64,000 bases of DNA. Source: a virus (lineage: Duplodnaviria; Heunggongvirae; Uroviricota; Caudoviricetes). The DNA is taken from IMG/VR virus record IMGVR_UViG_3300024341_000001, one strand, 5' to 3'. The notes beneath the pieces were generated by a model, which was not told where the DNA came from, did not search any database, and was given only the letters and a program-made list of their open reading frames with translations. The translations under genes were made by a program, and so were the position numbers. Of this stretch, positions 2,870-54,980 are shown one piece after another; within the stretch, counting starts at the first letter, position 1, and every line of letters starts with the position of its first letter.

Positions 2870-3374
2870 AGACTACTCCTTTCTTTTGTTTAACAGCTTC
2901 TGCAATCATTTTCATCTTAATTCGTTTACTTGGCCAAGGAATCAAATGCTGGTCCTTTATTATATTGTTACCTTTTTTATGGTTGCATTTAACACATAAT
3001 GTCTGCAAATTTTCTAGGTCATCTTTGCCGCCCAGTGACTTGGGTAATATATGATCTTTAGTAAATAATATTTCTTCATCACCAACACGTGCGTATAAAT
3101 TAAGATGATATCTGGTGTTCTCAACACTGGCATCGTACCCGTGAATATGTTTTTCCACAGCAAAATATTCTCCACGTAGTCCGCAGTGTTTACAGCTTAG
3201 GCTTTGACGAAATACCTTATAACGTATTGACTCCATGTGTATCCATTGTCCACAGATTAATCGATCTGGACGCCCTCGGCCGTCATAAATCTGTGTGAAT
3301 ACCTCATCTATAGGTACTATTCCGAGGCGTATCATAGAAGATAAAATCCCGAGATGAAAGCTAGAATCATACAA
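2844..3374 (-). CDS. HNH homing endonuclease
   Basis: DHILPKSLGGKDDLENLQTLCVKCNHKK = canonical HNH motif; upstream CKHCG Zn knuckle. Confidence 0.75.
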   Translation of the reverse strand: MYDSSFHLGILSSMIRLGIVPIDEVFTQIYDGRGRPDRLICGQWIHMESIRYKVFRQSLSCKHCGLRGEYFAVEKHIHGYDASVENTRYHLNLYARVGDEEILFTKDHILPKSLGGKDDLENLQTLCVKCNHKKGNNIIKDQHLIPWPSKRIKMKMIAEAVKQKKGVVYGGICNVF

Positions 3375-6820: not shown

Positions 6821-7219
6821 TTATGAGTGAAATTCGCGGTCGTAACTACGTGCACATTTTTCACAAAGACTTAGGGGGATGTCGCTTATATATTTTTTAG
6901 GTAATAGCTGTAAGTCTATGTAAATACTGAGACTTGGTAGGTAGCCTACATTTGTGACAGTGTGCGCATTTTTGGTATGACATATAACACACGTTTCAAT
7001 TGGTATATTTGTATGTTTTACTAACACTTCTTCGTTTATCGCAGTATCCAGGTATTGGTACTGTTGGCCGCATTCTTGACAAAAATCATAATTAGTTAAT
7101 TTCGCACTATCATTCCGTATGCAACCTAGTACACCTTCAGCACAGCATGGACATAAAACACGATACGCCGATATTGTAGACGCGGACTGCAACGCAGAAT
7201 GGAAAAGTTTGATAATCAT
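6821..7219 (-). CDS. Cys-rich zinc-binding protein
   Basis: CPCC, CQEC, CVICH and CEKC motif pairs. Confidence 0.35.
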   Translation of the reverse strand: MIIKLFHSALQSASTISAYRVLCPCCAEGVLGCIRNDSAKLTNYDFCQECGQQYQYLDTAINEEVLVKHTNIPIETCVICHTKNAHTVTNVGYLPSLSIYIDLQLLPKKYISDIPLSLCEKCARSYDREFHS

Positions 7220-20660: not shown

Positions 20661-21180
20661 TATATATAGTATAAATACTGGTATTTCTTTGACCGCTGAT
20701 TTAAGAGAAAAAGGCCGTCAGGTTTTATTGGTATTAAATACATTATTTAAGGGCCGTGTTATAATAGCTCGAAATACATTTTATAAATTTTCTTCCAGAC
20801 TTCTTACAAAAGATGAAGCCACTAATTATATCGAAAAGCTGTTTCCGGAAAAACTTTTTCAACGGGTAATAAATAAAGATATTTATGCAGTATCTCCGGC
20901 AGAGATACTAAAATACTACGAAGCTTACGATCAAACGTCTTGTTTTGATATTCGTTTTCCAAAAACATCTGCTGAAGCACCCGAGGCTATCGTAGTAATA
21001 GAAAAAATAATATTTTATAATGAATTATACTTAGAATTCAACGCCGCACAAGCGCAGTTTAATCCATTACCATCTACAAACAAATTATACATGTACCCTC
21101 CATTAATATTTACTGATAATACAGATAGACCGCCTGACGCACCGGTGTCGATAAATTATGACCAAACAAAAACAAACTAA
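20617..21180 (+). CDS. hypothetical protein
   Basis: 187-aa ORF. Confidence 0.35.
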   Translation: MMSTPSLGSPILSGNIYSINTGISLTADLREKGRQVLLVLNTLFKGRVIIARNTFYKFSSRLLTKDEATNYIEKLFPEKLFQRVINKDIYAVSPAEILKYYEAYDQTSCFDIRFPKTSAEAPEAIVVIEKIIFYNELYLEFNAAQAQFNPLPSTNKLYMYPPLIFTDNTDRPPDAPVSINYDQTKTN

Positions 21181-21667
21181 TGGTAACAATGGCTTTCGAT
21201 TTTCATTGAAGGCTCTCGTAACAAATAAAATAAAAAGATTCAGTGACGATATTTCGAAACGTAACGGTAAAAGTAACATCACTGAAGAATGGCTTTACAA
21301 TCGACTCAAGCAATTATTACTCCCAGGCAATTTTATAGCCTGCGAGACATGCGGCATGCCAATGACGTGGGATGCCCTGACGATCGATCACAAAGTTCCT
21401 CGATCGTACTATAAACGATACCGTGGTAATATACATAATACTGATAATTTAAATATTATATGCCCGGCTTGTAATAGTTTAAAAGGTCAACGTACCTTAC
21501 CACAATTTCTAACGGTATTACGTGCCAGAAATGATGAGATACAAAAAATGGCCGCTCCTTATCGTAACCAACCACAACCTCCTATTATAGCCCCGATGTA
21601 TCCAGATATCGGATTAGGTCTAAAAATATTTGGACCAGATAAAGCGCATAAACGATTGAAACAGTAA
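21158..21667 (+). CDS. HNH homing endonuclease
   Basis: CETCG...DHKVPRS...NLNIICPACNSLKG. Confidence 0.7.
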   Translation: MTKQKQTNGNNGFRFSLKALVTNKIKRFSDDISKRNGKSNITEEWLYNRLKQLLLPGNFIACETCGMPMTWDALTIDHKVPRSYYKRYRGNIHNTDNLNIICPACNSLKGQRTLPQFLTVLRARNDEIQKMAAPYRNQPQPPIIAPMYPDIGLGLKIFGPDKAHKRLKQ

Positions 21668-28814: not shown

Positions 28815-31475
28815 ATGTTACAATTTAAATTATCAGACTTCGTACAAAAGTTTTTTTATCTTAATAATGAACCATTCAGTTTGGATGACTATCCACACAT
28901 GAAATTGATTTATGATATTGATCCAATGAAGTTGTGTTTACATACGAGTCGCCAAGTCGCTAAATCTACCACGCTGTCAAATTTCATGTTAGCTAAATGT
29001 ATTTTAATGCCATATGTTAGCAACAGGCATAAGGGTGGATTTAAAATTTTGGCAGTATCGCCCACTGTTGAACAGGTACGCGTATTTTCATATGATCGTG
29101 TTGATACTGTTATAGAACAAAGCCCGATATTTAAAAAATATTTTGTAAGTAGTTCCACAATTCAAAACGTATTCCAAAAACGTTTCCTTAATGGTAGTGT
29201 TATTTATTTACGTTATGGATCTGCAACTGCCGATCGTATTCGTGGTATATCTGCTGACATGAATTGTTTTGATGCAAATACAGAAATTCTCACCGAGAAT
29301 GGTTGGAAATTATTTAAAAATCTTCTCGACGATGAAAGAGTTGCTACAGTAAATGACAAAACGGGAATGGTAGAATATCATTTACCCGATATGTATATCC
29401 AAAAAGCATATCAAGGTAAACTAGTTAAATTTACGCAGCGCAGTTTTAATCTTTGCGTGACCCCTGATCATATAATGAACGTATCACAGGAATTAAGTAC
29501 TGGTTACTATCAGAATCCAAAAGTTAAAGGCTGGTTTAATATAAAAGCACAACAGTTAGCAGGAAAAAATTTTAAATTAGGTGTTAGGGGAAATTGGGAG
29601 TCAGCCAATCCCGTCGATTTTTAATTACCTGAACAAATTGTTGCAAATAAGTTAGACGGATCTCCGTATAAATATCCCAAAAAGATACCCAGTTTTTCAG
29701 CGCCATTGAAAATTTTCATGCAATTTATGGGGTGGTTTTTAGCTGAGGGGTATATATCTCCTGCGGGACAAATACGTATAATACAAAACGAAGGTGCATA
29801 CTCAGACGAAATTCGACATTGCTTAACAGCAATGGGAGTTAAATGGGGCGTTGTTGCCAGACATAATAAAAATGCTGTATGTAATACATTTTACTTTGCA
29901 AACGCTGCTTTATCTAGATACTTATATGCTTTGGGCACCTCGCATGATAAATATATACCTAGGGAATTATTAAATTACATACAATATCTACCGGACCTTT
30001 TAAATGCCTTATATAAAGGAGATGCCATGCATGTACAAGACTTCGGTCATAACGGGGGACAGTTAGTTACAGCATCAATCGAGTTAGCAAATACAGTACA
30101 GGAGGCATGGCTTCGCTTGGGGTATCTTTGTAGTATTAGAAGTCGAAAACCAGCATATAACGGAACAATTTTATATAACGTCGGACGCTATAAAAAAGAC
30201 AGCATAATATTTTGGAACGGATATACAAATAATTCGCGCATCGAATATATAGATTACATTGGACCAGTTTATTGTGTCGGCGTAAAGAATCACTTGATTT
30301 TTGTAAGAGATGCGATAGAAAAGTTACCTATAGTGTGTCATCAGTGTCTGGACGAAATCCAAGATATTCCCGATGATAACATCGATGTCATTGAACAAAC
30401 AATGGCGCGATCATTTTACAAACATTCGATATATGCAGGAACTCCAAAACATATTATCGGGCCATTAGCAAATCGATGGCGTCAGACTACTAGAAATGAA
30501 TGGATTGCAAAATGCCAGCATTGTGAGAAACAAAACTTTCTTGACGAAGAAAACATTCAACCATGGGGGCTTGCTTGTAGATATTGCAAAATGTCTCTAG
30601 ACGCGCGCAACGGACAATGGGTGCGTACAAATCCCGAATCAGACAAATCTATTCATGATGGATCGTACTTGTTTGAGGGGTTTAGAGTTAGTGTTTTAAT
30701 GTTTGCCCACGCGCCTTGGGTAAATTGGCAGACGGATGTTTATATACCATTTCAAACAAAATCCAAAGGCGTATTTTTTAACGAGTATCTAGGGCTACCA
30801 TATGATGCCGGTGTCGCTCCAGTAACCGAAGAGGAAATTAAAGCATGTTGCACTGGTGGGCCAATGATTCAGGAACCAGATCGTCGCACCAGAGATTATC
30901 CCACGTTTATGGGAATGGACTGGGGGCCAATTAACAGCGAAATGTCAAAAACGTTGATGACAATTTCGCAACGTCGCGGTGATGTTACAGAAATAATCTA
31001 CCTACATAAGTATGAAGGTAAAGAAGCTGATTATGCTTATCTACATGAGCATATACCGGCAGAATATTACAGATGGGGCTGTGCATTAATAGGAGCTGAT
31101 GCCGGTTTTGGTGAGGCAGTGAATGCTGAAGTACGAAATCGTATAAATGATAAAACCAGATTAATAGCATTTCAACATGTGCCGAATCAAAAACAACGTG
31201 GTCAGTTCAATGGGCATATTCAGGCATATACCTTATCTCGCAACACCGTGATGACTGATTTATTTACTAAGATAAAACAGCGGAAGATCGTTTTCCCGCA
31301 ATGGAGTGACTTTCAATATTATGCGAAAGATATACTGGCTATTGCGATTGAATATAACGAAGAAAAGAACACGTACAGATATATTAAGTCTGCCGCCGAC
31401 GACACCTTCCATAGCATTTTGTATGGAGACCTGGCTGCAGAATTATATTACCGTGCCTCTGCATTTAATAATTAA
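28815..31475 (+). CDS. terL: terminase large subunit (ATPase-nuclease), interrupted by an intein
   Basis: Walker A TSRQVAKSTT. The spliced junction ...ISADMN|CLDEIQD restores the Walker B hhhhDE motif. The C-extein carries a nuclease-type domain. N-extein = 28815..29264, C-extein = 30345..31475. There is an in-frame TAA at 29622..29624 inside the intein. Confidence 0.85.
29265..30344 (+). mobile_element. intein with LAGLIDADG homing-endonuclease domain (C-terminal Gln variant)
   Basis: Block A CFDANTEILTENGW (Cys1). Block B LCVTPDHIMNV (TxxH). LAGLIDADG motifs FMGWFLAEGYI and LLNALYKGDAM. Block G VYCVGVKNHLIFV, ending CHQ followed by the +1 Cys. 1080 nt = 360 codons. Confidence 0.8.
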
Positions 31476-40381: not shown

Positions 40382-40789
40382 ATGTTAAAGTCTGCATTAT
40401 TTACAATAAAACAAGACGAATTATTATCAAAAGATAAGCCACTTGAATTCATTTCAACATCTATACTACATGCTTTTAAACAAGTCAATCCAAAAATCAC
40501 AAAAGAATTAATAACAGTTTTTACCCAATTAAAAGGTGATTCAATGTCTTTTTGGGGCGAAGTAGATGAACGCCCATTACTAAAAGAAGATATATTGCAA
40601 ACAGTGGCCAACGCTGTGGATCATATTGGTCCAAATGGTGAAGGGCTCAAAGCACAAATTACGAAGACTGGTACTGAAGTGTGTATAGTAATAGGTTTTG
40701 TTTATAAAGAAATTACACCTGAATTGTTGGAAAAAGAAAATCCACAACACCATAAAAATGTACAAAGATGGATGGAGATAGGCACATAA
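40382..40789 (+). CDS. hypothetical protein
   Basis: 135 aa. Confidence 0.35.
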   Translation: MLKSALFTIKQDELLSKDKPLEFISTSILHAFKQVNPKITKELITVFTQLKGDSMSFWGEVDERPLLKEDILQTVANAVDHIGPNGEGLKAQITKTGTEVCIVIGFVYKEITPELLEKENPQHHKNVQRWMEIGT

Positions 40790-41052
40790 AGCGCACTAAA
40801 ATATTTACATCTGTGCTCGAGAAAGTTAAAAGTGACAATATAAACAAATACGGAGTATTGACATGCGAAATATGCAAACAGCAAATAGAACACGAGATAT
40901 ACCATTTTGATCATATAATACCAGTATCACGGTATTCCAAAAAACGTACTCCCTTTCGTATGAATGGTGTTCGTAATTTACAAATTACGTGTGAGCGATG
41001 CAATTTAAAGAAAAGTAATAAAATAAAGAAAGTGAAATTTAAGACATTATGA
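40768..41052 (+). CDS. HNH homing endonuclease
   Basis: CEICK...HFDHIIPVSR...NLQITCERCNLKKS. Confidence 0.7.
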   Translation: MDGDRHIKRTKIFTSVLEKVKSDNINKYGVLTCEICKQQIEHEIYHFDHIIPVSRYSKKRTPFRMNGVRNLQITCERCNLKKSNKIKKVKFKTL

Positions 41053-42322: not shown

Positions 42323-43167
42323 AATTAACTGCCGTCGCAACTTGTAGAAATGATGGTTATCGGGGTGATTTACATTTACGAGTACCATTTAGTATTAATG
42401 CATTGACCGCCACATTCGATGAAGTAATTTATGTTGATTGGAATTCACCGTCAGGTATAGACTTGATAACAGCGCTTGGAGATGCCATAAATAAAACAGG
42501 TAAATTACGAGTATTAAAAGTAAATAAGGCACAAACAGATCAAGTCACAAAGAACGATCCTGGTGCGCCGGCAAGTTGTGGGTTACTAGGTAATAATATG
42601 GCAATACGTAGGTCCACAGGAGACTGGATATTAATAACATCATTAGATTCGATTGTACCCGATCGAGCATCATTTGAAAAATTAACCGCAGACCCAAAAA
42701 TAGGTTGGGTCATTTCTAGGCATGATGTAGATTTTGCGGAATTAAAACAATTTAATGCTAAAGATATAGAAGTTGTTCAAAGGTATTTTAGGGAAAATCT
42801 ACCAAGATATGGTGGGCACGGTTTTAGTGGGGCCTGCGCTGGTGATGTGTGGTCTATCCTTGATTGTTGTGGTGATTTTCAGTTTTTTCATAAAGACGTT
42901 TTATTTGAAATACGTGGTTATGAAGAAGAATATTTTTATAAAGGGTACACTGATAGTAATTTAAATAAGAAAGCTATTCTCGCAGGATATCCCGTAAAAC
43001 CATGTTTTGATATCGCTACCATGCATATGAGTCATCCGGGATATGGTTTCGGTGGAACCGGCTCACGAATAAATGACATCTACGGTTGTTTAATAAATGC
43101 AGGTGCTACCAAGAACGCCGCCACATGGGGCGCGTCTCCATTTACATTAGAAGAATTTACTGTATGA
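42319..43167 (+). CDS. GT-A fold glycosyltransferase (GT2-like)
   Basis: IYVDWNSPSG and LITSLDSIVPD resemble the GT2 nucleotide-binding/DXD motifs; RGYEEEYFYKG region. Confidence 0.4.
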   Translation: MKLTAVATCRNDGYRGDLHLRVPFSINALTATFDEVIYVDWNSPSGIDLITALGDAINKTGKLRVLKVNKAQTDQVTKNDPGAPASCGLLGNNMAIRRSTGDWILITSLDSIVPDRASFEKLTADPKIGWVISRHDVDFAELKQFNAKDIEVVQRYFRENLPRYGGHGFSGACAGDVWSILDCCGDFQFFHKDVLFEIRGYEEEYFYKGYTDSNLNKKAILAGYPVKPCFDIATMHMSHPGYGFGGTGSRINDIYGCLINAGATKNAATWGASPFTLEEFTV

Positions 43168-44525
43168 AAATTTTGTTCTGTATATATGAATTGGATTATG
43201 CTGATCATATAGCGATAGCGCACTTATCCGCTATTGCTAAAAAACGTGATCATCAGACATTTTTCTGTGCTTTAACAGATTATCCAACTGTTTTGAATTC
43301 ATATAAACCGGACATTGTAGCTTATTCTTTAAATGTTTATGGATATAAAGAAATGATTGATGCACATAAATTAGCGAAAACAAAACACAATTTTTTATCT
43401 ATAGCTGGTGGGCCTCAGATTACTTTTGCACCGCAAGATTTCGAAAACACGGCCATCGACGCTTTCTGTGTTGGCGAGGGAGATCTTGTATTTGATGACT
43501 TTCTTAAATGTGTAGAAAATAATGAATCCTACGACAATGTTTTAAATATAATAACAAAAGAAAAGATAAATCCTATACGACCACTCATTAGTGACTTAAA
43601 TATTTTGCCCGAAGCGGACAGGGATTTGGTGTTGAATAATTCCTTCTTAAAGAATACTCCTAAAAAAACCTTTTACGCTACAAGGGGATGCCCGTTCTTT
43701 TGTCATTATTGTGCAAATAGCGCGTATCGTGCTTTGTATAAAGGGAAGGGTAAATCTGCTAGACGGTTTTCACCAGATCGAATTATTGATGAAATACAAC
43801 GTGTTCGTAAAAATTATCGCACAGAGTTCATAAAATTCGGGGACGATCTTTTCGCATTAAAAGCAGATAGTTGGCTTGATGCGTTTACCCGTAGATATAA
43901 GAAGGAAGTAGATTTGCCGTTCAATTGCTATTTACGCATTGACCACGTAGATAAAGATTTACTTGCTATGTTGAAGTCCGCCAATTGCTACTCCGTTCAT
44001 CTATCCGTTGACAGTATGTCAGAACATGTGCGCGAAGCAGTATTGGGACGACATATGCAAAAGATCGATGTAACGAAAACAGCGCGTATGATCGCAGATA
44101 CAGGAATACGCACGTGGGTTAATTTTATGTTGGCGGCTCCTGAATCTACGGTGAAAGATGATATGGATATCATTGATTTTGGTTATAAAGGTAAGGTTAC
44201 ATATTTGGCCTGTTCAACTACAGTACCAATGAATGGTACCAAACTTTATGAATATAGTTTACAAAAAGGTATTCTTGATCCAACATATGTAGGAGATATG
44301 ACAGACTGTTCAAAGAAATCCCCGTACAAGTCTTTTTCTGAACGTGAAAAAGAAATACGCTATAATATTTTCTTACTTGGAAGTTTTGCGGCTAAATTAC
44401 CTAATCCATTACGCGCGTGTATGAAATTACTTATACGCTATATAAAACCTAATAAATTATTTATATTTGTCAGAGATAAGTATTACAAGTATAGTATAGA
44501 AAACAGAATTTTTAAATTAGCATAA
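43164..44525 (+). CDS. B12-binding radical SAM enzyme (class-B rSAM, methyltransferase-like)
   Basis: CPFFCHYCAN = CxxxCxxC radical-SAM cluster; N-terminal cobalamin-binding-like domain; ATG 43164 overlaps the upstream stop (ATGA). Confidence 0.6.
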   Translation: MKILFCIYELDYADHIAIAHLSAIAKKRDHQTFFCALTDYPTVLNSYKPDIVAYSLNVYGYKEMIDAHKLAKTKHNFLSIAGGPQITFAPQDFENTAIDAFCVGEGDLVFDDFLKCVENNESYDNVLNIITKEKINPIRPLISDLNILPEADRDLVLNNSFLKNTPKKTFYATRGCPFFCHYCANSAYRALYKGKGKSARRFSPDRIIDEIQRVRKNYRTEFIKFGDDLFALKADSWLDAFTRRYKKEVDLPFNCYLRIDHVDKDLLAMLKSANCYSVHLSVDSMSEHVREAVLGRHMQKIDVTKTARMIADTGIRTWVNFMLAAPESTVKDDMDIIDFGYKGKVTYLACSTTVPMNGTKLYEYSLQKGILDPTYVGDMTDCSKKSPYKSFSEREKEIRYNIFLLGSFAAKLPNPLRACMKLLIRYIKPNKLFIFVRDKYYKYSIENRIFKLA

Positions 44526-44527
44526 TT

Positions 44528-45181
44528 ATGGAATTATTTAGAGAAAAACAAAGAGAAATAACTATTACAAAACAAGAGCTCATTGATTTTGAAAGTGATG
44601 TCGCTGCTCGATGGGAACAAGGGCAAATAAAAGCTCCTGTTCACCTGTCTTTTAATAATGAGGATTATTTGATCGAATTATTTCAATTTATTCATCCAGA
44701 TGACTGGGTGTTTACAACTTGGCGAAATCATTATCATGCATTATTACACGGAGTTCCCAAAGATGAGTTATTAAATAAAATATTGGCAGGCCAAAGCATA
44801 TCATTTCAATCTCCACAACATCATCTTTATACGTCAGCTATCGTTGGTGGTATACTACCTATTGCAGTTGGTGCGGCGGCTGGACTGAAACTAAATCTTA
44901 ACACAACTCGCATGGTGTGGTGCTTTGTTGGTGATATGGCCAGTGAAAGTGGTATCTTTTACGAAGCAGTGAAGTATTCGGTACGTAATGATCTTCCTAT
45001 TCATTTTGTTATAGAAGATAATGGATTAAGCACAAATACGCCAACACAGGAAGCATGGGGTAAATTACGATCGGCCGAATTATTTGTAGATATTGAATCC
45101 CCCGAAAAATATATATCATATTTTAGTTATAAACGTGAACGCTATCCGCATGTAGGGATAGGGAAATGGATACATTTCTAA
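44528..45181 (+). CDS. TPP-dependent enzyme, PP-domain subunit (E1-alpha/transketolase-N-like)
   Basis: GDMASESGIFYEA...N...FVIEDNG = GDG-x(25-30)-N thiamine-diphosphate fold. Confidence 0.55.
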   Translation: MELFREKQREITITKQELIDFESDVAARWEQGQIKAPVHLSFNNEDYLIELFQFIHPDDWVFTTWRNHYHALLHGVPKDELLNKILAGQSISFQSPQHHLYTSAIVGGILPIAVGAAAGLKLNLNTTRMVWCFVGDMASESGIFYEAVKYSVRNDLPIHFVIEDNGLSTNTPTQEAWGKLRSAELFVDIESPEKYISYFSYKRERYPHVGIGKWIHF

Positions 45182-45726
45182 TGGACTATTTTGATGAATT
45201 AAAGCGAGCAATGAAGTATTTGGGCGAACAATCAAATACAAAGTTTATCGGACAATCAGTGGTGTGGGACGGTCATGCCTTATTTAAAAGTTTAGTAGAT
45301 GTGCCAATGGAAAAACGTATTGAATTACCAGTATTCGAAGATTTCCAGATGGGGCTTAGTATTGGTATGGCCTTGGAAGGAATAGTTCCAATCAGTATTT
45401 ATCCAAGAGCCGACTTTTTAATCATAGCTGCGAATCAAATAACTAACCATTTGGCAAATATACGTAAAGTATCCGAAGGCGGGTATAAACCTAAAATTAT
45501 AATACGAACTAGCGTCGGCGCTATCGAGCCGCTATATCCTGGTCCTCAACATTGTCAGGATCATACTGAGGCATTGAAGTTATTATGTCGCGGAGAAATT
45601 GAGGTTGTCCAATTAAAAAGTAAGTATGATATATTATATGCTTATTATATTGCATATACCCGAGAAGATGGTAAGTCTACAATATTAATTGAATACGGTG
45701 ATCTATATCATAAGGTGGAGGCATGA
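45166..45726 (+). CDS. TPP-dependent enzyme, pyrimidine-binding subunit (E1-beta/transketolase-C-like)
   Basis: FIGQSVVWDG...FEDFQMGLSIGMALEG transketolase-type Pyr domain; overlaps the partner gene. Confidence 0.5.
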   Translation: MDTFLMDYFDELKRAMKYLGEQSNTKFIGQSVVWDGHALFKSLVDVPMEKRIELPVFEDFQMGLSIGMALEGIVPISIYPRADFLIIAANQITNHLANIRKVSEGGYKPKIIIRTSVGAIEPLYPGPQHCQDHTEALKLLCRGEIEVVQLKSKYDILYAYYIAYTREDGKSTILIEYGDLYHKVEA

Positions 45727-46436
45727 TCGAGGTAAGTATTTTTGGTGCGGCAATACGTACTAATATTTGGCTTGAGTTATACGAGAATTTTCGCAAGGCA
45801 GGCGTTTCCTTTGAAATGATATTTGCTGGTCCTAACATACCATCATATACTTTACCCGATAATTTTAAACACATTCATACGTCGGTTAAACCCGCACAGG
45901 CAATTGAGATTACCAGACGAGCCTGCACCGGTCGATTTATAATGAATACGGCTGATGATATGTGTTATCCTGACGATATGTTAGCTAGATTTGTAGACGC
46001 GTGGGAAAAAGCACCGAATAAAAAAACAATGTTTTCGGGTAGATATGCCTCCGCAGATCTTATAAGTATTGAGAGTATACAACATTACAATATGAATGTT
46101 ATGACTAGTCCGTTAGTGCCCTTAAATGGATTCTTATCTAGAGAAACATCGGATGAAATCGGAGGGCTTGATACTAATTTTATAGGATTATATTGGGACC
46201 TGGATCGAGCATTACGTCTTTATGAATTAGGCGGACTTGTGCAAATTTTGTGGGATATCGCTGCATATGAAACACAGCCACATCAATTGTTAAATAATTA
46301 TGGTGCGGCAGATCGTATGTATTTAAATTTTCTTTATGGGGAATATGGGAAACAGAAAAGAAAGAAACCAGTAGATCATTATAAGGATAATGATCTATTA
46401 ACAATATCACAGGGGCAAAAAGGAAGCTGGACATGA
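45723..46436 (+). CDS. hypothetical protein of the sugar island
   Basis: 237 aa. Confidence 0.3.
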   Translation: MIEVSIFGAAIRTNIWLELYENFRKAGVSFEMIFAGPNIPSYTLPDNFKHIHTSVKPAQAIEITRRACTGRFIMNTADDMCYPDDMLARFVDAWEKAPNKKTMFSGRYASADLISIESIQHYNMNVMTSPLVPLNGFLSRETSDEIGGLDTNFIGLYWDLDRALRLYELGGLVQILWDIAAYETQPHQLLNNYGAADRMYLNFLYGEYGKQKRKKPVDHYKDNDLLTISQGQKGSWT

Positions 46437-47386
46437 AAAAAATATTAGTTTGTGGTTGCACAGGATTTATGGGGTATAATATTTCGTATTATTTTAGACA
46501 CGATTACGAAGTAGTGGGCGTTGCTCATACTAAAGCAAATTGTCCTGATAATATAAAATTATTATCGTGCGATCTAACAACGCAAAAAGGCGTAGATCAT
46601 GTGATGAGTTATGGCCCATATGATGTAATAATTCAAGCAGCCGCAACAACATCTGGATCGAAAGATATAACAACAAAACCTTACATACATGTAACTGACA
46701 ATGCTGTAATGAACTCATTGTTATTACGTGCGGCTTATGAACACAGTGTACCGCAGTTTATATTCCTGAGTTGTGGGGTGATGTATCAACCTGGGGACAC
46801 GCCGAGAAAAGAAACGGACTATGATGAATCGGATAAAATAGTACCGGCTTATTTTGGTGTCGGGTGGACTAAGGTATATATCGAAAAAATGTGTTAATTT
46901 TATTCAAGATTAGGTCGTACTAAACATATGGTTATACGACATTCGAATACTTTTGGACCACAAGATAAATATGATTATGAGCACTCACATGTATTCGGCG
47001 CCACGGTTAGAAAAGTAATGGATGCGGAGTACGGAGACACGATTACGGTGTGGGGTAATGGCACTGATACAGCACGCGATTTGATCTATGTCGACGATGT
47101 AGTACATTTTATTGATTTGGCTATTAACTTACAACATAAACCATACGATTTAGTGAATGTGTCTTATGGCAAAGCTATAACTGTAAAAGAAATGGTTGAA
47201 AGTATTATAGTGCAATCAGGCAAGGATTTAAAAATAACATATGACACTTCTAAACCCGCGATTCCAACTATTCTAGCGTTAGATAATAATAAAGCATTAG
47301 TTGACTATGGATGGAAGCCGCTACATACATTTTCACAGGGTATTTTTAAAACAATGAAATGGTATGGATCTGAATTTAAAGGCTAA
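46433..47386 (+). CDS. NAD-dependent epimerase/dehydratase interrupted by one in-frame TAA (46895..46897)
   Basis: GCTGFMG Rossmann motif. YFGVGWTKVYIEKMC = YxxxK block. The TAA sits in frame at one residue position of the conserved segment, and ...RHSNTFGP continues in the same frame (46928..47386 in the track). Confidence 0.5.
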
Positions 47387-48143
47387 ACAATTACGTAAGA
47401 AAATGTTTGAGACTGCGGTAAGGGCTGGTCGCGGTCATCTTGGCGGTGCGTTGTCATGCATGGACATATTAGTGTCGTTATATTATGGCGATATTGTTAC
47501 AAATGATACTAAATTTATTTTAAGTAAAGGCCATTCTGGGATTGCTTTATATACTGTACTTGCGGAACGTAACATTATATCTAACACCGAATTACATACA
47601 TTCTGCAAAAATGGTAGTTTGTTATCAGAGCATCCTAACAATCATATTCCTGGAATCATAACTATAACAGGATCGTTAGGTAATGGACTTGGTATTGGCG
47701 CAGGAATAGCTTTTGCCAAAAAACTTAATAATACTCCGGACAATGTTTTTGTATTAATGGGAGATGGCGAGTGCAATGAGGGGTCAGTGTGGGAAGCCGT
47801 ACGTTTTGCAGCTGTTCATGCCCTAACAAATTTACGAGTCATTGTTGATTGCAATGGATTTCAGTCCACCGATGCTGTGGATAAAAACACCACATATAGA
47901 CAGTTAATGAAAATATGGTCGGCATTTGGATGGATGTCGTATGTTGTGGATGGACACAATATTTTGCATTTGATAGAAGCCTATAAAAATGCATCTATAG
48001 TAACACCGACAGTTTATATAGCTCGTACAGTAAAAGGTAAAGGAATATCCTTTATGGAGAATAATGTAACAAGTCACCACGGATTACCAAATAAGGGTGA
48101 TACAATTTCTGCATTGGAGGAATTATCATATGGACTTGCGTGA
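47364..48143 (+). CDS. transketolase, N-terminal subunit
   Basis: GHLGGALSCMDI, SKGH, GSLGNGLGIGAGIA, MGDGECNEGSVWEA, IVDCNG. Confidence 0.7.
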   Translation: MDLNLKAKQLRKKMFETAVRAGRGHLGGALSCMDILVSLYYGDIVTNDTKFILSKGHSGIALYTVLAERNIISNTELHTFCKNGSLLSEHPNNHIPGIITITGSLGNGLGIGAGIAFAKKLNNTPDNVFVLMGDGECNEGSVWEAVRFAAVHALTNLRVIVDCNGFQSTDAVDKNTTYRQLMKIWSAFGWMSYVVDGHNILHLIEAYKNASIVTPTVYIARTVKGKGISFMENNVTSHHGLPNKGDTISALEELSYGLA

Positions 48144-49008
48144 TGCTATTTTTAATGAATTAATATTATTGGCAGATACATCTAAAGATGTATTTATATT
48201 ATCAGCCGACATGGGTGCTACCGAATTAGACAAATTTAAAGCAAAATATCCAAAACAATTTGTCAATGTTGGTATATCAGAACAGAATCTCATAAACGTT
48301 GCTGCCGGCATGGCAATGGAAGGTAAGAGAATATATGTATACACTATTGCCGCATTTCTTATTCAACGTGCCTTAGAACAGATAAAAGTAAATCTATGTG
48401 CTATGAAGTTACCTGTTACGTTAATAGGCATCGGTGGTGGGATGAGTTATAGTTATGATGGATTAACACATCATATACCACAAGACATAGGAATCTTGAA
48501 TACATTACCTAATATTGAAATTTTTGTACCTTTTGATGAAAGTAGTATGAGGAATTCGGTACATATTCTCAAGAACTCAACGACACCTCGGTATATTCGA
48601 CTTGACAAAGGAATTTATCCAGACTTACCAGCAATAACTTCCAATAATTATGTTCATGTTTTGAGGCAAGGAAGAACTCGGGCCGTTTTAACTTATGGCA
48701 CTTTAACGCACGAAGCATTGGATACTTTTCCGGAGGCTGGATGCATTTGTGTAGAGCGATTAAAACCATTAGATGAGGGTGAATTTCTGAAAGCCATAAA
48801 ACCATATCAAGAATTAATAGTATATGAGGAACATTCAAAAATAGGTGGATTAGCCTCTATTGTAGCATCGCTTTTATTACAACATGGGTTGGACAAGAAA
48901 TTAAATGTTTATGCGTTTGAAGATGAATATTGTAATATAGCGGGAGATCGTATTTATATCAATAATAAATTTTTAAAGAAAGTGGAGAGTAATAATGTCG
49001 TGGACTGA
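48097..49008 (+). CDS. transketolase, C-terminal subunit
   Basis: GISEQNLINVAAGMAMEG pyrimidine-binding motif plus C-terminal domain. Confidence 0.7.
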   Translation: MIQFLHWRNYHMDLRDAIFNELILLADTSKDVFILSADMGATELDKFKAKYPKQFVNVGISEQNLINVAAGMAMEGKRIYVYTIAAFLIQRALEQIKVNLCAMKLPVTLIGIGGGMSYSYDGLTHHIPQDIGILNTLPNIEIFVPFDESSMRNSVHILKNSTTPRYIRLDKGIYPDLPAITSNNYVHVLRQGRTRAVLTYGTLTHEALDTFPEAGCICVERLKPLDEGEFLKAIKPYQELIVYEEHSKIGGLASIVASLLLQHGLDKKLNVYAFEDEYCNIAGDRIYINNKFLKKVESNNVVD

Positions 49009-49699
49009 TCATGGTGCCGTGAATACAATTAAGGGGTTAGCAAGGGAATTTAAAGTAGAAACATATATAGAAACAGGCACATTTCGAGGACAAGGAATAC
49101 AAATAGCGGCGCGTTATTTTAAACACGCTTATTCATGTGAAATCATTGAGGATTTTTATACTGATGTTGTGTTAAGAACTATAAATAAACATAATATAAA
49201 AATTTTCCACATGGATAGTTCAAAATTCTTAAAATATATATCTACAACATTAAATGAACCGCTCATTTATTATTTGGATGCTCATTTTTACGATCCCAGT
49301 CTACCTAAAGAATTACGTTTTGTTGTAAAACAAGAATTAGCATCAATGGCCCCATCCAATAACTGTATCATTATAATACATGATTTTGATACTAGAAACG
49401 GATTAGGCCATATTACATATGACGGCATACCTTTGGATTTTGAGATAGTGCGTGATAACCTTTTGAAGATAAATCCGCGATTTTCTTTTTATACCAATTA
49501 TAAAGAAGCCTGCGATATAGTAACCGAGAAAGACTTCATAGATGGTAAAATGGATCCGTTGTTGCTTGACGATGAAATGAGAGATACGTTAAAATTCATA
49601 TGGTCAGCCCCACAGAAAACTTATCGTGGGCTATTGTACTGTATACCTAGAGATGTAAATGCATCTAAATATCATTTAAGAAAGGTGAATTGGAGATGA
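48995..49699 (+). CDS. putative SAM-dependent methyltransferase (FkbM/TylF-like)
   Basis: YIETGTFRGQG glycine-rich motif-I-like segment. Confidence 0.35.
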   Translation: MSWTDHGAVNTIKGLAREFKVETYIETGTFRGQGIQIAARYFKHAYSCEIIEDFYTDVVLRTINKHNIKIFHMDSSKFLKYISTTLNEPLIYYLDAHFYDPSLPKELRFVVKQELASMAPSNNCIIIIHDFDTRNGLGHITYDGIPLDFEIVRDNLLKINPRFSFYTNYKEACDIVTEKDFIDGKMDPLLLDDEMRDTLKFIWSAPQKTYRGLLYCIPRDVNASKYHLRKVNWR

Positions 49700-50421
49700 A
49701 TGTACTAATAACTGGCGGAACGCATGGTATCGGATGGGCCATCGCTAACAGATTTGCTATCGACGACCGTAACGAACATATTTATATAGCTGCTCGACAT
49801 GTAGATGATTTAGCTCATTCCTATGTATATGAAGGTATACAAGCCGATTTTACGAACACAGTAGATATAGGAAAAGTTGCTGAACAGATAAAGAATCTAC
49901 ATATCGACATTCTTATAAATAATGTAGGAGGTGGAGGGCGTTGGGGTACAGATGATGTTTTAACAACTCCCGAAGAATCTTGGGATGGTGTGATATTAAA
50001 AAATTATGAAACGGCACGACAGTTAACCCTGGCCGCGTTGCCGTGGATGAAACAAAATAATTTTGGCCGCGTTGTTACTATTTCGTCCATCTATGGTAAG
50101 GAATCCGGAGGACGTCCGTGGTTCACTGTAGCAAAAGCAGCTGAGATTGCGTTAATGAAATCGTTAGCGATACGAAAAGAACTGGTTCGACATAATATTA
50201 CATTTAATACGGTATGTCCTGGTGCGATAGCAATTCCTGGGACGGGATGGGATAAATTAACGCCGGAAGAAAGAAGTACATTCGAGGAAACATTACCGTT
50301 AGGGCGTATGGGAACGCCGGAAGAAGTTGCCGCTTTGGTTTGCTTCTTATGTTCGGAAGAGGCGAGTTTAATAAATGGAGCATGTATAACCGCAGATGGC
50401 GGAGAAAGCAGGAGTTTTTAA
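49690..50421 (+). CDS. short-chain dehydrogenase/reductase (SDR)
   Basis: LITGGTHGIGWAIA = TGxxxGIG; catalytic Ser/Tyr/Lys region. Confidence 0.6.
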   Translation: MEMNVLITGGTHGIGWAIANRFAIDDRNEHIYIAARHVDDLAHSYVYEGIQADFTNTVDIGKVAEQIKNLHIDILINNVGGGGRWGTDDVLTTPEESWDGVILKNYETARQLTLAALPWMKQNNFGRVVTISSIYGKESGGRPWFTVAKAAEIALMKSLAIRKELVRHNITFNTVCPGAIAIPGTGWDKLTPEERSTFEETLPLGRMGTPEEVAALVCFLCSEEASLINGACITADGGESRSF

Positions 50422-51419
50422 TGTTGAGACAATCAGAATACGATGAATTTAGAGGAAAGAAAGTTTTGGTAATAGGCGGCACAGGATTAATAGGTCGTCC
50501 TGTTGTTGATATTTTAGTTAACGCCGGCGCCATCGTTACTGTGGTATCATTAGACGATCTTCAGCCAAATCGATTAGCAGAATATGTATATTTGGATCTA
50601 CGATATTTCAATGCCGCAGAGTTTATAACTAAAGGAATGGATTATGTATTTCATTTGGCGGGTATCAAAGGATCGATTGAAGTTACAAAAACGAAACCAG
50701 CTAGTTTTTTTGTGCCCTTGTTACAATTTAATACAAACATACTTGAAGCATGTCGTATTAATAACGTAAAAAAAGTCGCCTTCACTAGTTCTATTGGCGC
50801 ATACGAAAGTGCTGAAATATTTCACGAAGACGGTATAACGCAAGGGCTACCGATGGATATGTATCCAGGTTGGGCAAAGCGCATGGCTGAGTTACAAATA
50901 CAGGCTTATAAAGAACAATACGGTATTAAAAATTTTGTCGTATTGCGTCCTTGTAATGTCTATGGTCCTGGAGATAACTTCGATCCAAATAATGCAATGG
51001 TTGTGCCTTCGTTGATGTATCGTATTGCTTCGGGCGAGAACCCTGTAAAAATATGGGGGGATGGTTCAGCAATTCGTGACTTTGCTTATAATGTAGATGT
51101 AGCTGAGGGTATTATACAAGCAATGCATTATATGCCAGATGTAAATTATATTAATTTGGGCAGTGGCAAGGATTATACAATAAAAAATTTAGTTGATACA
51201 CTACATGAGTTTATTGATTTCAATCATGAATGGGATACAACAAAATCAAACGGATTTCCAAAACGCGTTATGGATATAACGAAAGCGCGTATGTTAATAA
51301 ACTTTGAACCTATCACTACATTACGCGATGGATTAGAACATACGTGGAAATGGTTTTTAGCAAACAAAGAAGAGTATTTAAAGAGAAAGAATTATTTTAA
51401 TGAAGATAATAGACACTAA
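50421..51419 (+). CDS. NAD-dependent NDP-sugar epimerase/reductase
   Basis: VLVIGGTGLIGRPV Rossmann; YPGWAKRMAE YxxxK; ATG 50421 overlaps the SDR stop (TAATG); the track start 50340 is an extension. Confidence 0.55.
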   Translation: MLRQSEYDEFRGKKVLVIGGTGLIGRPVVDILVNAGAIVTVVSLDDLQPNRLAEYVYLDLRYFNAAEFITKGMDYVFHLAGIKGSIEVTKTKPASFFVPLLQFNTNILEACRINNVKKVAFTSSIGAYESAEIFHEDGITQGLPMDMYPGWAKRMAELQIQAYKEQYGIKNFVVLRPCNVYGPGDNFDPNNAMVVPSLMYRIASGENPVKIWGDGSAIRDFAYNVDVAEGIIQAMHYMPDVNYINLGSGKDYTIKNLVDTLHEFIDFNHEWDTTKSNGFPKRVMDITKARMLINFEPITTLRDGLEHTWKWFLANKEEYLKRKNYFNEDNRH

Positions 51420-51909
51420 ATTTGAAAAAGCAAAATTAATTATACCAGAGGTATTCTATGATTTTCGTGGCGAATACTTAGAGACCTTCAACAAAGAGAA
51501 CTACAAAGCATTAAATGTACCAGATGAATTTATACAAGATGATATTTCAATTTCATACAAGCATGTCCTTCGAGGATTCCACGGTGATTTTAAAACATGG
51601 AAATTGGTACAATGTGTGTACGGCAGTATATACGTTGTTATTATTGATAATAACAAAGAGTCTAAAACATATTATCAATGGCAAGCATTTACACTAAATG
51701 ACAAAAATCGTTATCAGTTATTAGTGCCGCCAGGATTCGGCAATAGTCTGCTAGCTATGACGGACATTATCGTGTATAGTTATAAGCAGACTACATATTA
51801 TGAACGTGCGTCGCAGTTTACTATAGCTCCATTTAATCCTTATCTAGGAATTTACTGGCCGATAGCAAAAGAGAACATTATTATATCAGAAAGGGATAGA
51901 AATGCCTAA
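51400..51909 (+). CDS. dTDP-4-dehydrorhamnose 3,5-epimerase-like (RmlC cupin)
   Basis: DFRGEYLETF, VLRGFHGD, KLVQCVYGSIYVVIID, LLVPPGFGNS follow the RmlC motif order. Confidence 0.65.
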   Translation: MKIIDTKFEKAKLIIPEVFYDFRGEYLETFNKENYKALNVPDEFIQDDISISYKHVLRGFHGDFKTWKLVQCVYGSIYVVIIDNNKESKTYYQWQAFTLNDKNRYQLLVPPGFGNSLLAMTDIIVYSYKQTTYYERASQFTIAPFNPYLGIYWPIAKENIIISERDRNA

Positions 51910-52927
51910 TTATCTTATAACCGGTGCCACTGGATTTGTTGGTTCACATATGATTGATTATTTATTAGCTAATACTGATGGCATGATTTACGCTTCTAGA
52001 CGTTGGCGCAGTCGTGACGAGAATATAGTACATTTGTACGGTAATCCGCGAGTCAATTTCATAGAGGCGGATCTGATGGATCGTGGCAGTCTAAGTTTGT
52101 TATTGCGAAAAGCAAAACCAGATATTATTTGGCATTTTGCCGCCCAGAGTTTTCCTGAAACGAGTTTTATTTATCCGATACATACTTTACAAACAAATAT
52201 CATTGGAACTGCCAATTTATTAGATGAAATACATCTTGCGGTATTAGATGGCCGTATAGATCCGATTATAGTAAGTGTTAGTTCCAGCGAAGTATATGGT
52301 ATGCCGGATCCTTCAGAAGTGCCTATAAAAGAAACTAACCCAATTAGAGCGGCAAATCCATATAGTATATCAAAAGTCGGACACGATCTGATGTCACAGT
52401 ATTATCATAAAGCATTTGGATTAAAAATAATAACTACCAGGATGTTTAGTCACGAAGGTGCACGCCGGGGAAGGAAATTTGCATTATCTAGTTTTGCATA
52501 TCAAATTGTACAAGGCGAAATGCAGTATAGACAAGATATAAATAATCGCTCTTATGGAAATTCAAAATATATAATTCGTGTGGGAAATCTTAATTCTGTG
52601 CGCACTTATGCTCATATAGACGATGCTGTACATGCTTATTGGTTAGCCGCCAATAAATGTACAGTCGGCGAAGTTTATAATATAGGTGGCAATCACACAT
52701 GTACTGTCGGTGAAGCATTAAATGATTTAATATCTAAAAGTTATATACAACCAACTGATTTCAAAATAGAAATAGATTTAGCATTAATCAGGCCTACTGA
52801 TATTACACTACAAATACCCGATTGTACTAAATTTATGCAAGCTACTGGATGGAAACCAACAAAAGGTCTTGATGATATAAATAAGGATCTTTTAATTTAT
52901 TGGAGAAACGTATTGCGCCGGTCGTAA
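51902..52927 (+). CDS. NDP-sugar 4,6-dehydratase/epimerase (extended SDR)
   Basis: ITGATGFVGSHMIDYLL; SSSEVYG; YSISKVGHD YxxxK. Confidence 0.6.
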   Translation: MPNYLITGATGFVGSHMIDYLLANTDGMIYASRRWRSRDENIVHLYGNPRVNFIEADLMDRGSLSLLLRKAKPDIIWHFAAQSFPETSFIYPIHTLQTNIIGTANLLDEIHLAVLDGRIDPIIVSVSSSEVYGMPDPSEVPIKETNPIRAANPYSISKVGHDLMSQYYHKAFGLKIITTRMFSHEGARRGRKFALSSFAYQIVQGEMQYRQDINNRSYGNSKYIIRVGNLNSVRTYAHIDDAVHAYWLAANKCTVGEVYNIGGNHTCTVGEALNDLISKSYIQPTDFKIEIDLALIRPTDITLQIPDCTKFMQATGWKPTKGLDDINKDLLIYWRNVLRRS

Positions 52928-52946: not shown

Positions 52947-54980
52947 ATGATAGTACATAGAAAAGACGGTTGGCACGTATTGTCCGAAAAAGGCAAGAAT
53001 TTGGGCGGGCCGTATTCATCACGTTCAGCGGCTGTACATAGACTTCAACAGGTTGAATATTTTAAGCATAAAGGAAAAGCAGGTGCTTTAGGTATTCCTG
53101 ATCGGGACGTAAAAACACGTCCACGCGAATTCTCTACACCAGAAAATTGGCACTTTAATGTGCAACAGCATAAAGCGCATAAGGCTGGAGAACATTTCGA
53201 TTTACGACTTGTTGATCCACGTACCGGAATTGCACATAGTTGGGCCGCTCGTAACTTACCTAAGTTTCCAGGCGAAAAAGTTCTTGCTGTGCATCAACCT
53301 GATCATACTGCAGAGTACTCGGCATGGTCTGGTGAAATCAAATCAGGTTACGGCGCTGGAACAGTAAAGTTATTCTCAGCGGATAAGGTTGAAGTTACTA
53401 AAAGTACACCTGATCATGTATCTTTTAATGTGTATAAGTCTAATGGCGACACTGAAAAATATACTTTAATACATACTGGTGGGGATGATTGGCTGTTTAT
53501 GAACTCTACACCTACGCGAGATACTCGACCAGAAGTTAACATTTCGAAACCTAAATTTCAAAGTATAAAGCCTGAATCCATCGATGTAACAAAGTCGACC
53601 GAGATATTAGCACCGAAGTATGATGGAGCAATGAATGCGTTTTTGCTTAGACGTGGAATGCCTATTGAAATATACTCTTATCGTCCAAGCAAGAAAGGAC
53701 CTGCAAAGTTAATTAATCATACGTTTCGTACTGGACTTCATACTGCAATAGTTCCGGAGAGTATGCCAGGCAAAACAGTATTATTAGGAGAACTATTTGC
53801 AAAAGATAGAACATCTGGTAATGTTTTATCATCAAGAGACACTGCAGCTAGATTATTGTCAAATGTATGGCGTTCAAGAGAACTCCAAGAAAACGCGCCG
53901 CTTGATCATGTAGTTTTTGATGTGGTTCGTTATCAAGGTAAAGATGTAAGTAGTCATCCATATAGTGAAAAACTCGAGATACTAAAAAATATTTCAAAAG
54001 AAATACCAGAATTAAAAATGCCGCCGCTAGCGACGACTATAAATGAAAAACAAGTATTACTAGATGAAATACGTTCTGGCAACCATCCGTTAACACAAGA
54101 GGGCGTTGTAGTATATGATTTAAATAAGTCGGTACCATTGAAGGCAAAATTATTCAAAGATTATGATGTACGTATAATGTCGGTATTTCCGGGGGAAGGA
54201 AAATATAAAAATAAAGCTGCTGGTGGATTTACTTATTCATACAATGGTAAAGAGGAAATTGGTCGGGTTGGTAGTGGATTCACAGATCAAATGAGAAAAG
54301 AAATGTTTGAACTTCCAAATAAATATGTAGGACAGGTAGCGCGTGTGCTGGCGCAGGAGAAATTACCAAGTGGTGCACTTCGTATGCCTGTATACAAAGA
54401 CATTAGAAGTGAAACTTGGCCAAGACGCAAACAAGCTGCATTACTTGAACCGTTTCACAAAAAAGCACCGGATCCAAAAATACATAAAGGTTTAAAGACT
54501 GTTCAGACAGCTACATTAAACGATACATCTGCACCAATGCCTGTATTAGGAGATTCTATGAGTAATTATCATCCAGCATTTACTAAGACTGGATTAATTA
54601 AACTGAAATTTAAACCAACAAGACCAGATGCGCAATTAAACATAGCCAGATTAAAGGAAATGCGTATACCGCCGGACGATCCACAACAAATGCAAACCGA
54701 AGATAGTATACCGATTCTGGGTGATAATTTGGCAAATATGCCAAAGACGGGCGGAATAGATTGGAAACATATGACAAAAGAATATTTGTTACCATCATTG
54801 GTTGCTGGCCCTGTAATTGGTACTGCGGTAACTGCAGCCACCTCATCGAAAAATGAGTTTAATAAAAATATTGGAAAAGGAATAGCCACTGGTATAGGTA
54901 TCGACCTAGCCACTGGATTAAGTATGGGATTATGGAATCAACGGAAGAATCTGAAGAAACTATTCAAGACAAAACTATAA
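52947..54980 (+). CDS. LigD-like 3'-phosphoesterase + ATP-dependent DNA ligase fusion with Gly-zipper C-terminus
   Basis: PE domain: HKAGEHFDLRLV, SWAARNLPK, LAVHQPDHTAEY, GYGAGTVKLF match the LigD PE H-x-D-x-R/H/Y core. Ligase motifs: KYDGAM (I), LLGELF (III), EGVVVYD (IV), KAKLFKDYD (V). C-terminal VAGPVIGTAVTAA...GIATGIGIDLATGLSMGL. Confidence 0.65.
   Translation: MIVHRKDGWHVLSEKGKNLGGPYSSRSAAVHRLQQVEYFKHKGKAGALGIPDRDVKTRPREFSTPENWHFNVQQHKAHKAGEHFDLRLVDPRTGIAHSWAARNLPKFPGEKVLAVHQPDHTAEYSAWSGEIKSGYGAGTVKLFSADKVEVTKSTPDHVSFNVYKSNGDTEKYTLIHTGGDDWLFMNSTPTRDTRPEVNISKPKFQSIKPESIDVTKSTEILAPKYDGAMNAFLLRRGMPIEIYSYRPSKKGPAKLINHTFRTGLHTAIVPESMPGKTVLLGELFAKDRTSGNVLSSRDTAARLLSNVWRSRELQENAPLDHVVFDVVRYQGKDVSSHPYSEKLEILKNISKEIPELKMPPLATTINEKQVLLDEIRSGNHPLTQEGVVVYDLNKSVPLKAKLFKDYDVRIMSVFPGEGKYKNKAAGGFTYSYNGKEEIGRVGSGFTDQMRKEMFELPNKYVGQVARVLAQEKLPSGALRMPVYKDIRSETWPRRKQAALLEPFHKKAPDPKIHKGLKTVQTATLNDTSAPMPVLGDSMSNYHPAFTKTGLIKLKFKPTRPDAQLNIARLKEMRIPPDDPQQMQTEDSIPILGDNLANMPKTGGIDWKHMTKEYLLPSLVAGPVIGTAVTAATSSKNEFNKNIGKGIATGIGIDLATGLSMGLWNQRKNLKKLFKTKL

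Follow-up and report, generated by a model that had tools for sequence, protein, structure and literature searches.

The gene for the large terminase subunit (TerL) of an uncultured jumbo phage (∼215 kb) lies at 28815..31475 on the plus strand of the 64,000-nt stretch of IMG/VR record IMGVR_UViG_3300024341_000001 analysed here (the window), and is interrupted at 29265..30344 by an insert of 360 codons. As judged from sequence comparison, the identity, boundaries and insertion site of this insert are those of a genuine class-1 intein, composed of a Hint domain and a nested LAGLIDADG homing endonuclease and located within the Walker B motif of TerL. The intein ends in Gln instead of Asn and contains an in-frame TAA. 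An earlier note on this DNA had pointed to both features, and had left four explanations open for the TAA: a sequencing or assembly error, programmed readthrough, a naturally split trans-splicing intein, or a dead intein in an essential gene. Comparison with other assemblies of the same phage suggests that TerL is probably made as a single precursor of 886 amino acids (aa), and that the TAA, which is private to one assembly, is most probably a consensus error; otherwise it would represent a non-viable or complemented allele.

A single TAA at 29622..29624 divides one frame into two open reading frames (ORFs), 28815..29624 (269 aa) and 29706..31475 (589 aa); it corresponds to codon 120 of the insert and is followed by 27 sense codons. 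When this stop is read through, the frame runs from TerL ...RGISADMN into the insert and out again into CLDEIQD.... Direct inspection agreed with the earlier description of the insert, which begins with CFDANTEILTENG, contains LCVTPDH and two LAGLIDADG-like motifs, and ends in PIVCHQ before a Cys codon (30345..30347); its length of 360 codons, the frame of the TAA and the run of 27 sense codons after it were also as described. The internal ATG that had been placed at 29706 is in fact a TTG. The earliest in-frame ATGs are at positions 29718 and 29727, and the JGI gene caller sets the start of the second gene (product P0001) at 29727. The parts of the gene are as follows (residues are called invariant with reference to an alignment of eight sequences of the intein family):

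28815..29264, plus strand: TerL N-extein (150 aa), with Walker A (HTSRQVAKST) and the first half of the Walker B strand (...RGISADMN)
29265..30344, plus strand: class-1 intein of 360 codons (Cys1 to His359-Gln360) with nested LAGLIDADG homing endonuclease
29265..29303, plus strand: block A (CFDANTEILTENG), with the Cys1 nucleophile; C1, T6-T10, G13, W14 and K15 invariant
29451..29471, plus strand: block B (LCVTPDH), with TxxH formed by Thr66 and His69; T66 and H69 invariant
29622..29624, plus strand: in-frame TAA, codon 120 of the intein; all other assemblies have A at 29622 (AAA, Lys) where the window has T
29724..29756, plus strand: LAGLIDADG motif 1 (FMGWFLAEGYI), acidic Glu kept; aligns with G(W/I)(F/W)LAEG of the family and with the first LAGLIDADG helix of a VMA intein (HMMER)
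29997..30029, plus strand: LAGLIDADG motif 2 (LLNALYKGDAM), acidic Asp kept; aligns with the GDG motif of the family
30267..30305, plus strand: block F (VYCVGVKNHLIFV), assigned from the family alignment; position F:4 is Cys, and the His of the block is present
30327..30347, plus strand: block G (PIVCHQ) and Cys+1; penultimate His, and a C-terminal Gln (CAG) in place of Asn
30345..31475, plus strand: TerL C-extein (CLDEIQD...) with stop codon; the rest of Walker B (D-E) and the nuclease domain

The uninterrupted precursor would comprise 886 aa and the spliced TerL 526 aa, with GISADMNCLDEIQDIPDDNIDVIEQTMAR as the predicted junction peptide. The 526-aa protein matched phrog_675 (terminase large subunit) contiguously from end to end (1.6e-60), and Pfam GpA_ATPase above the cut-off (6e-11); Terminase_6N was matched at 23.1 bits, with a cut-off of 22. 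In tblastn searches, the TerL proteins of cultured phages aligned with residues 7-514 in a single piece at 25-29% identity, and a megablast of the TerL region against cultured phages gave no match. This phage is therefore only a distant relative of isolates.

The inspection of IMG/VR identified four relatives of this TerL (L001 to L004). Two of them, L002 and L003, are 83-84% identical to the TerL studied here from the start of the C-extein (30345) onward and lack the insert; they read ...RGISADMN-LIDEVQD... and ...ADTN-LIDE..., respectively. In the L002-type intein-less allele, GATATGAAT lies immediately to the left of the insertion point and CTTATAGACGAA immediately to its right. L004, a more distant relative, also lacks an insert at Walker B, where it reads ...VDQIFADE.... 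The extein residue at +1 is Leu or Phe in intein-less orthologues, and Cys here. An hhalign comparison of the TerL profile with lambda gpA placed D-M-N/C-L-D-E onto D173-V-A-G-Y-D178-E179 (76.6% probability); we take D178 and E179 of gpA to be the Walker B aspartate and the catalytic glutamate. The motif was mapped in this way because a phmmer search of spliced TerL against PDB sequences returned nothing beyond two unrelated proteins at chance level (E 0.35 and 0.89), and an hmmsearch with the TerL profile gave no match. The placement of the insert in Walker B, as first proposed, is thus supported by the intein-less orthologues, by the contiguous TerL match and by the alignment to gpA. As a separate observation, the TerL of L004 (4240..7134 of that contig) carries a different, canonical intein (Cys1 ... 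THN, followed by Ser) in Walker A, between Lys and Ser, with junctions HTSRQVAK/C and HN/STTL. This clade of TerL proteins therefore hosts inteins at two catalytic sites.

Several lines of evidence indicate that the insert is an intein. It is absent from orthologues at the exact point of insertion, and L001 has an intein 63% identical to it at the same site, within an uninterrupted ORF of 891 aa. Seven remoter relatives were found in unrelated host proteins, which include PAPS reductase, thymidylate synthase, a methyltransferase, class III ribonucleotide reductase (RNR), dCTP deaminase and a papain-like peptidase; such a spread of related inserts over unrelated hosts is typical of inteins. The family alignment contains both LAGLIDADG motifs, block F and block G in addition to the invariant C1, T66 and H69, and the profile derived from the family matched inteins of solved structure, namely VMA inteins (7qsu, 5e-12, and 7qss), PI-PkoII (2cw7), AceL NrdHF (6zgq) and Mja KlbA (2jmz). 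The assignment of a LAGLIDADG domain is backed by the two motifs, with their acidic residues, and by a match to Pfam LAGLIDADG_3 (2.5e-6, intein residues 246-311). An AlphaFold model of the intein, built on a seven-sequence alignment, was poor (mean predicted local distance difference test score, pLDDT, 58) and was therefore used for a coarse fold search only; all the top Foldseek matches of this low-confidence model in the PDB were inteins or Hedgehog Hint domains. The earlier note had made its proposal depend on an alignment with Hint-domain profiles, and the insert does align with intein profiles and folds. A second IMG/VR scan with the intein returned L001 only, and a metagenome scan with an alignment of the two inteins returned, among the matches listed, only the source contig of L001.

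The features expected of a class-1 intein are present in Cys1 (29265..29267), in the TxxH motif (Thr66-Pro-Asp-His69) and in Cys+1 (30345..30347), but not in the C-terminal Asn after His, since the intein ends in His-Gln (CAT CAG). Because Gln is a documented functional substitute (PMC4031507), this is best regarded as an atypical variant, and the assignment to class 1 stands. A class-3 intein was considered and rejected. Cys1 is present, a Met and not a Trp occurs after His69+1, and the penultimate residue is His and not Thr; only the Cys at F:4 fits. The presence of Cys1 and the lack of a WCT triplet thus place the intein in class 1 and not in class 3. At position 4 of block F, only one residue is commoner than Cys (PMC4031507).

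The atypical C-terminal Gln, read directly from the sequence, is present in all copies of the phage, every one of which has ...PIVCHQ followed by Cys. The intein of L001 ends in ...ISKN before Cys, with AAA AAT in place of the CAT CAG found here, and six other members of the family end in GN followed by Cys or Thr. Since L001 and these six relatives end in Asn, the Gln is, on this alignment, derived; it is fixed among the sequenced copies, and by the same comparison it arrived together with the penultimate His. Among the known inteins ending in Gln, those of the Pab and Mma PolII proteins splice slowly, while in that of the CIV RNR Gln allows better splicing than Asn (PMC4031507; PMC8175363). 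The native intein with its Gln presumably splices as well, given that it interrupts TerL within Walker B and that the genotype recurs intact in many samples.

The comparison with L001 also allowed selection on the different parts of the gene to be assessed. Synonymous divergence between the two is saturated, so the proportions of nonsynonymous (pN) and synonymous (pS) differences are given here, without a dN/dS ratio for most segments. The value of pN was 0.225 for the N-terminal Hint segment, 0.254 for the LAGLIDADG domain and 0.242 for the C-terminal Hint segment, and 0.18-0.21 for the exteins; it reached 0.34 in the short linker after the TAA. The corresponding pS was 0.68-0.82. Judging from these values, both the splicing and the endonuclease parts are under purifying selection since the lineages of the window and of L001 separated.

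Other assemblies of the phage cover the whole window (L021, 1-11515; L011, 991-22721; L005 to L008, 19398-41475; L016, 38049-44891; L014, 42947-64000). Comparison with them showed two differing bases in 64,000, at positions 29622 and 46895. Four assemblies are 100% identical to the window around the TAA except for an A at position 29622: L005 (SRR7617176, 17.7 kb compared), L006 (SRR35384740, 15.8 kb), L007 (SRR7616090, 13.6 kb) and L008 (SRR7617220, 8.4 kb). An ENA assembly, L009, has A at this position too. At the protein level, P0010 (886 aa) is the read-through translation of the window with Lys at intein codon 120 (...NPVDF-K-LPEQIV...), and 13 contigs encode it across JGI, Logan and ENA, with lengths of at least 200 kb in six cases. 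The truncated products P0015 (269 aa) and P0001 (582 aa) come from one JGI contig only, of 214,965 bp, evidently the one from which the window was taken. They were located through the listing of a 90% identity cluster, exact look-ups of both having given no match; the same cluster holds P0010, P0011, P0012 and P0014, all with Lys at codon 120. The equivalent codon in L001 is GTT (Val), the position being variable in the family. Exact-pattern scans of genome and viral contigs for the region of the TAA gave no match and no clue to the host.

The stop thus corresponds, on comparison of the assemblies, to a single-base change from AAA to TAA at position 29622, private to this JGI assembly. The intact protein on 13 contigs and the A in four otherwise identical assemblies show that the TAA does not belong to the phage itself. 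The earlier note had reasoned that a sense codon at 29622 in the reads would reduce the matter to an assembly error; the other assemblies supply that codon in substance, all of them having AAA where the DNA is otherwise 100% identical over 8-18 kb, and a sequencing or assembly error, or a private variant, is the explanation favoured of the four. A frameshift was ruled out, the same frame being homologous to L001 on both sides of the stop. An artificial change was also rejected, as the truncated proteins are recorded in JGI/IMG.

The second difference, G to T at position 46895, turns a GAA (Glu) codon into another TAA (46895..46897) and is likewise private to this assembly. It splits a gene for a NAD-dependent sugar epimerase of 317 aa (PF01370) into ORFs 46433..46897 and 46928..47386 (154 and 152 aa). 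The two halves (P0017 and P0018) are found on this contig only; the gene is intact in L014 and L015, and the intact protein, P0016, is present in JGI, Logan and ENA. The occurrence of a second TAA in a gene free of inteins argues against any intein-specific explanation of the first. At both sites, the substituted T is a copy of the base just before it and borders a low-complexity stretch (TTTT/AAA and GTGT/GAA); we read this as leaning towards an artefact of base calling or consensus. Leaving position 29622 aside, L009 has 16 substitutions, 12 of them G>T or C>A; among these, GGA to TGA at window position 30057 splits the intein at another place. Private stops of this kind in L009 indicate that such artefacts do arise in assemblies of this phage. 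More broadly, the ENA contigs L009, L017 and L020 (ERZ27250200) differ privately by numerous G>T and C>A changes and by a deletion of 1 bp. TerL (P0012, P0013) and two downstream structural genes are broken by these differences, examples of which lie at window-equivalent positions 30057, 32513 and 33282. This pattern looks like a signature of oxidative damage or of low-coverage error.

Some observations weigh against the view that an error accounts for the TAA and that the intein is otherwise active. Both private differences, two out of two, create a TAA. A random coding substitution produces a stop in 5.1% of cases, and the transversions A:T>T:A and G:C>T:A do so in about 10%. Since the first stop was the reason for examining the window, the fair figure is that for the second stop (p ∼0.09); if errors are random, such a pair of stops is somewhat surprising, though no more than a mild oddity. 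Assembly sequences by themselves do not separate an error from a real allele. Further, all the copies with Gln belong to one near-clonal genotype, so that they show its persistence across samples and not over evolutionary time.

The strongest alternative is that the TAAs at 29622 and 46895 are both real and belong to a defective sub-lineage dominant in the sample, which could persist either through complementation by wild-type phage co-infecting at high multiplicity or as a non-productive genome in a carrier state. Under this explanation, it would be no accident that both private differences are nonsense changes in genes with trans-acting products; taken jointly, two stops would arise by random substitution with a chance of ∼0.002 (all classes) or ∼0.01 (these transversion classes), and the truncated products are indeed recorded in JGI/IMG for this contig. 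However, p is only ∼0.09 once the ascertainment of the first stop is allowed for, relaxed selection does not itself enrich for stops, the truncated products do not appear in the Logan and ENA assemblies, and L009 shows that private stops of this phage can arise as damage-type artefacts. A defective sub-lineage is thus a possibility to be taken seriously, but a rather unlikely one. A bolder version, in which the genome with both stops is a real replicating variant that obtains its TerL either by trans-splicing (of the 269-aa N-extein-IntN with a reinitiated product containing the endonuclease, IntC and the C-extein) or through an ochre-suppressor tRNA from the host or from the unseen part of the phage genome, seems a long shot. 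Were it true, it would offer a snapshot of a contiguous LAGLIDADG intein in the process of becoming split.

Readthrough of the TAA, whether programmed or through ochre suppression by a tRNA of the phage or the host, would be compatible with the presence of two in-frame TAAs in one genome copy, with ∼130 kb of the genome being unseen, and with the existence of phage tRNAs just past the right end of the window, where tRNA-Met(CAT), tRNA-Val(TAC) and tRNA-Ser(GCT) are interleaved with an HNH gene (L022, 5653..7086). However, no tRNA was found within the window, and the 10 kb beyond each of its ends contain no suppressor, only these tRNA-Met, tRNA-Val and tRNA-Ser. TAA ends 54 of the 75 long ORFs in the window (72%), TAAT is the commonest stop tetranucleotide, and the stop at 29622 itself lies in a TAAT context, the most efficient context for termination in Escherichia coli. 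A global recoding of TAA was rejected, as TAA is the main terminator, and the only two in-frame TAAs are both private to this assembly. No mechanism can have evolved around stops that lack conservation. Readthrough of either kind, the programmed kind being one of the options first proposed, is very improbable.

A dead intein, in which the change from Asn to Gln abolished splicing and the gene is decaying, would fit the Gln found in place of a near-universal Asn and the slow splicing of some inteins with Gln (PMC4031507). Against this, several projects have yielded the genotype with Gln in intact form, on 13 contigs of which six are near-complete genomes. The intein also has Cys1, TxxH, the block F His, the penultimate His and Cys+1 in place, and its pN lies far below pS throughout, purifying selection being visible in all parts of its intact form. 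In addition, an intein unable to splice would presumably be lethal, as it interrupts TerL inside Walker B. This option is therefore as hard to sustain as readthrough.

The least credible of the options is a naturally split intein, in which the TAA would yield an N-extein-IntN protein and a second protein joining the endonuclease and IntC to the C-extein, the two trans-splicing. The stop does fall between blocks B and F, near the endonuclease insertion, where natural and engineered split inteins are broken (PMC2677866), and the frame is open and homologous on both sides of it. The earlier claim that the break lies exactly at the position used by natural split inteins holds only approximately. 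In an alignment with a 154-aa mini-intein of the family, the TAA is next to the endonuclease insertion, but it lies within the last N-terminal Hint segment, and inside a predicted strand of the low-confidence model. Neither the sister intein of L001 nor any of the 13 other contigs of the phage has the break, and the second private TAA lies in a gene without an intein. The first in-frame start after the stop is the TTG located 84 nt downstream, and no Shine-Dalgarno-like motif precedes this TTG (29706) or the ATGs at 29718 and 29727. The absence of such a motif before the internal start, already pointed out in the earlier note, was confirmed, but it is weak evidence, since only 40% of the long ORFs in the window (7% in the background), TerL not among them, have one.

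The explanation considered probable is therefore a genuine Walker B intein within a single 886-aa precursor and a TAA introduced by a consensus error. In the circulating phage, TerL would be translated as one polypeptide. Cys1 would form a thioester, aided by Thr66 and His69 of block B, and Cys+1 would attack it; the C-terminal Gln, with the penultimate His, would then cyclise in place of Asn and free the intein, and ligation of the exteins would restore ...ADMN-CLDE.... The endonuclease would presumably cut intein-less alleles such as ...ADMN-LIDE... and so spread the element. Splicing and homing activity are both predictions. The outcome of the check is mainly negative, in that it keeps the reading of a split or recoded terminase from resting on one base in one assembly.

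Further features of the genome were noted. The gene for a family A DNA polymerase, called as two ORFs (61090..62106 and 60037..60837; 338 and 266 aa), is interrupted at 60883..61117 on the minus strand by a group I intron, which matches Rfam model RF00028 over its full length (69.4 bits, E 2e-17). All assemblies contain this intron. HNH endonuclease genes (PF01844, PF14279) stand free at three places, 2844..3374 (minus strand), 21158..21667 (plus strand) and ∼40768..41052 (plus strand). With these three genes, the intein and the group I intron, the genome is rich in selfish elements. Five substitutions occur within 47 bp at window positions 6946..6992, in ORF 6821..7219 (minus strand), whereas the genome is nearly identical elsewhere, and are common to L012 (SRR7616076) and L020 (ENA); their presence in two independent assemblies points to real strain variation or to a small recombination patch. 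A long cluster of genes for sugar-nucleotide and cofactor enzymes extends over ∼43086..52927 (plus strand). It includes genes for a radical SAM/B12-binding protein, split transketolase-like subunits, several NAD-dependent epimerases/dehydratases, a short-chain dehydrogenase and a dTDP-sugar isomerase, and is followed by a gene for a LigD_N-type DNA ligase (52947..54980). The cluster possibly serves glycan or DNA modification.

Inteins in the ATPase motifs of TerL proteins, Walker B included, are well documented and splice in reporter assays (PMC5050341). The closest parallels are the mycobacteriophage inteins TerL1-e (Walker B, Gaia gp2) and TerL1-a (P-loop) (Kelley et al. 2016, PMC5050341), which likewise interrupt a catalytic motif of the TerL ATPase. 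Like the intein described here, they have a nested homing endonuclease and are sporadic among close relatives. The occurrence of a second intein between the Lys and Ser of Walker A, in L004, extends the parallel, since mycobacteriophage TerL proteins show the same pair of sites. The present case differs from them in that TerL belongs to the GpA_ATPase/phrog_675 type and not to terminase_1, in the host range, in the source (an uncultured jumbo phage) and in the Gln end. In architecture, a Hint domain with an inserted two-motif LAGLIDADG endonuclease, the intein resembles the endonuclease-associated VMA inteins (7qsu, 7qss, 7qst), PI-SceI (1vde) and PI-PkoII (2cw7), which gave the best profile and fold matches, although identity to these is only 10-15%, the exteins are different and the model obtained here is of low confidence. 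With the natural split inteins and fractured genes of DnaE, gp41-1, NrdJ-1 and IMPDH-1 (Dassa et al. 2009, PMC2677866), the window shares a break between the N- and C-terminal Hint subdomains adjoining the endonuclease; unlike them, the break depends on one private base, there is no separate start signal, the endonuclease is fused in frame and the other copies are contiguous.

Known inteins ending in Gln include those of the PolII proteins of Pyrococcus abyssi, P. horikoshii and Methanoculleus marisnigri and of the RNR of Chilo iridescent virus (Mills 2004; Amitai 2004; PMC4031507; PMC8175363). They share with the TerL intein the Gln at the last position and a Cys+1, and that of P. abyssi PolII also the penultimate His; cyclisation of Gln is expected in all. 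Their exteins and organisms are unrelated to those studied here, the PolII examples are mini-inteins whereas the TerL intein has a LAGLIDADG endonuclease, and its Gln is demonstrably derived, its activity being predicted. What is new is therefore a previously undescribed member of an intein family, in a jumbo-phage terminase and with a natural C-terminal Gln, the kind of element being itself known. Together with its sister allele in L001, which bears Asn, it provides a convenient natural test of how, in the third step of splicing, the penultimate His co-varies with Gln.

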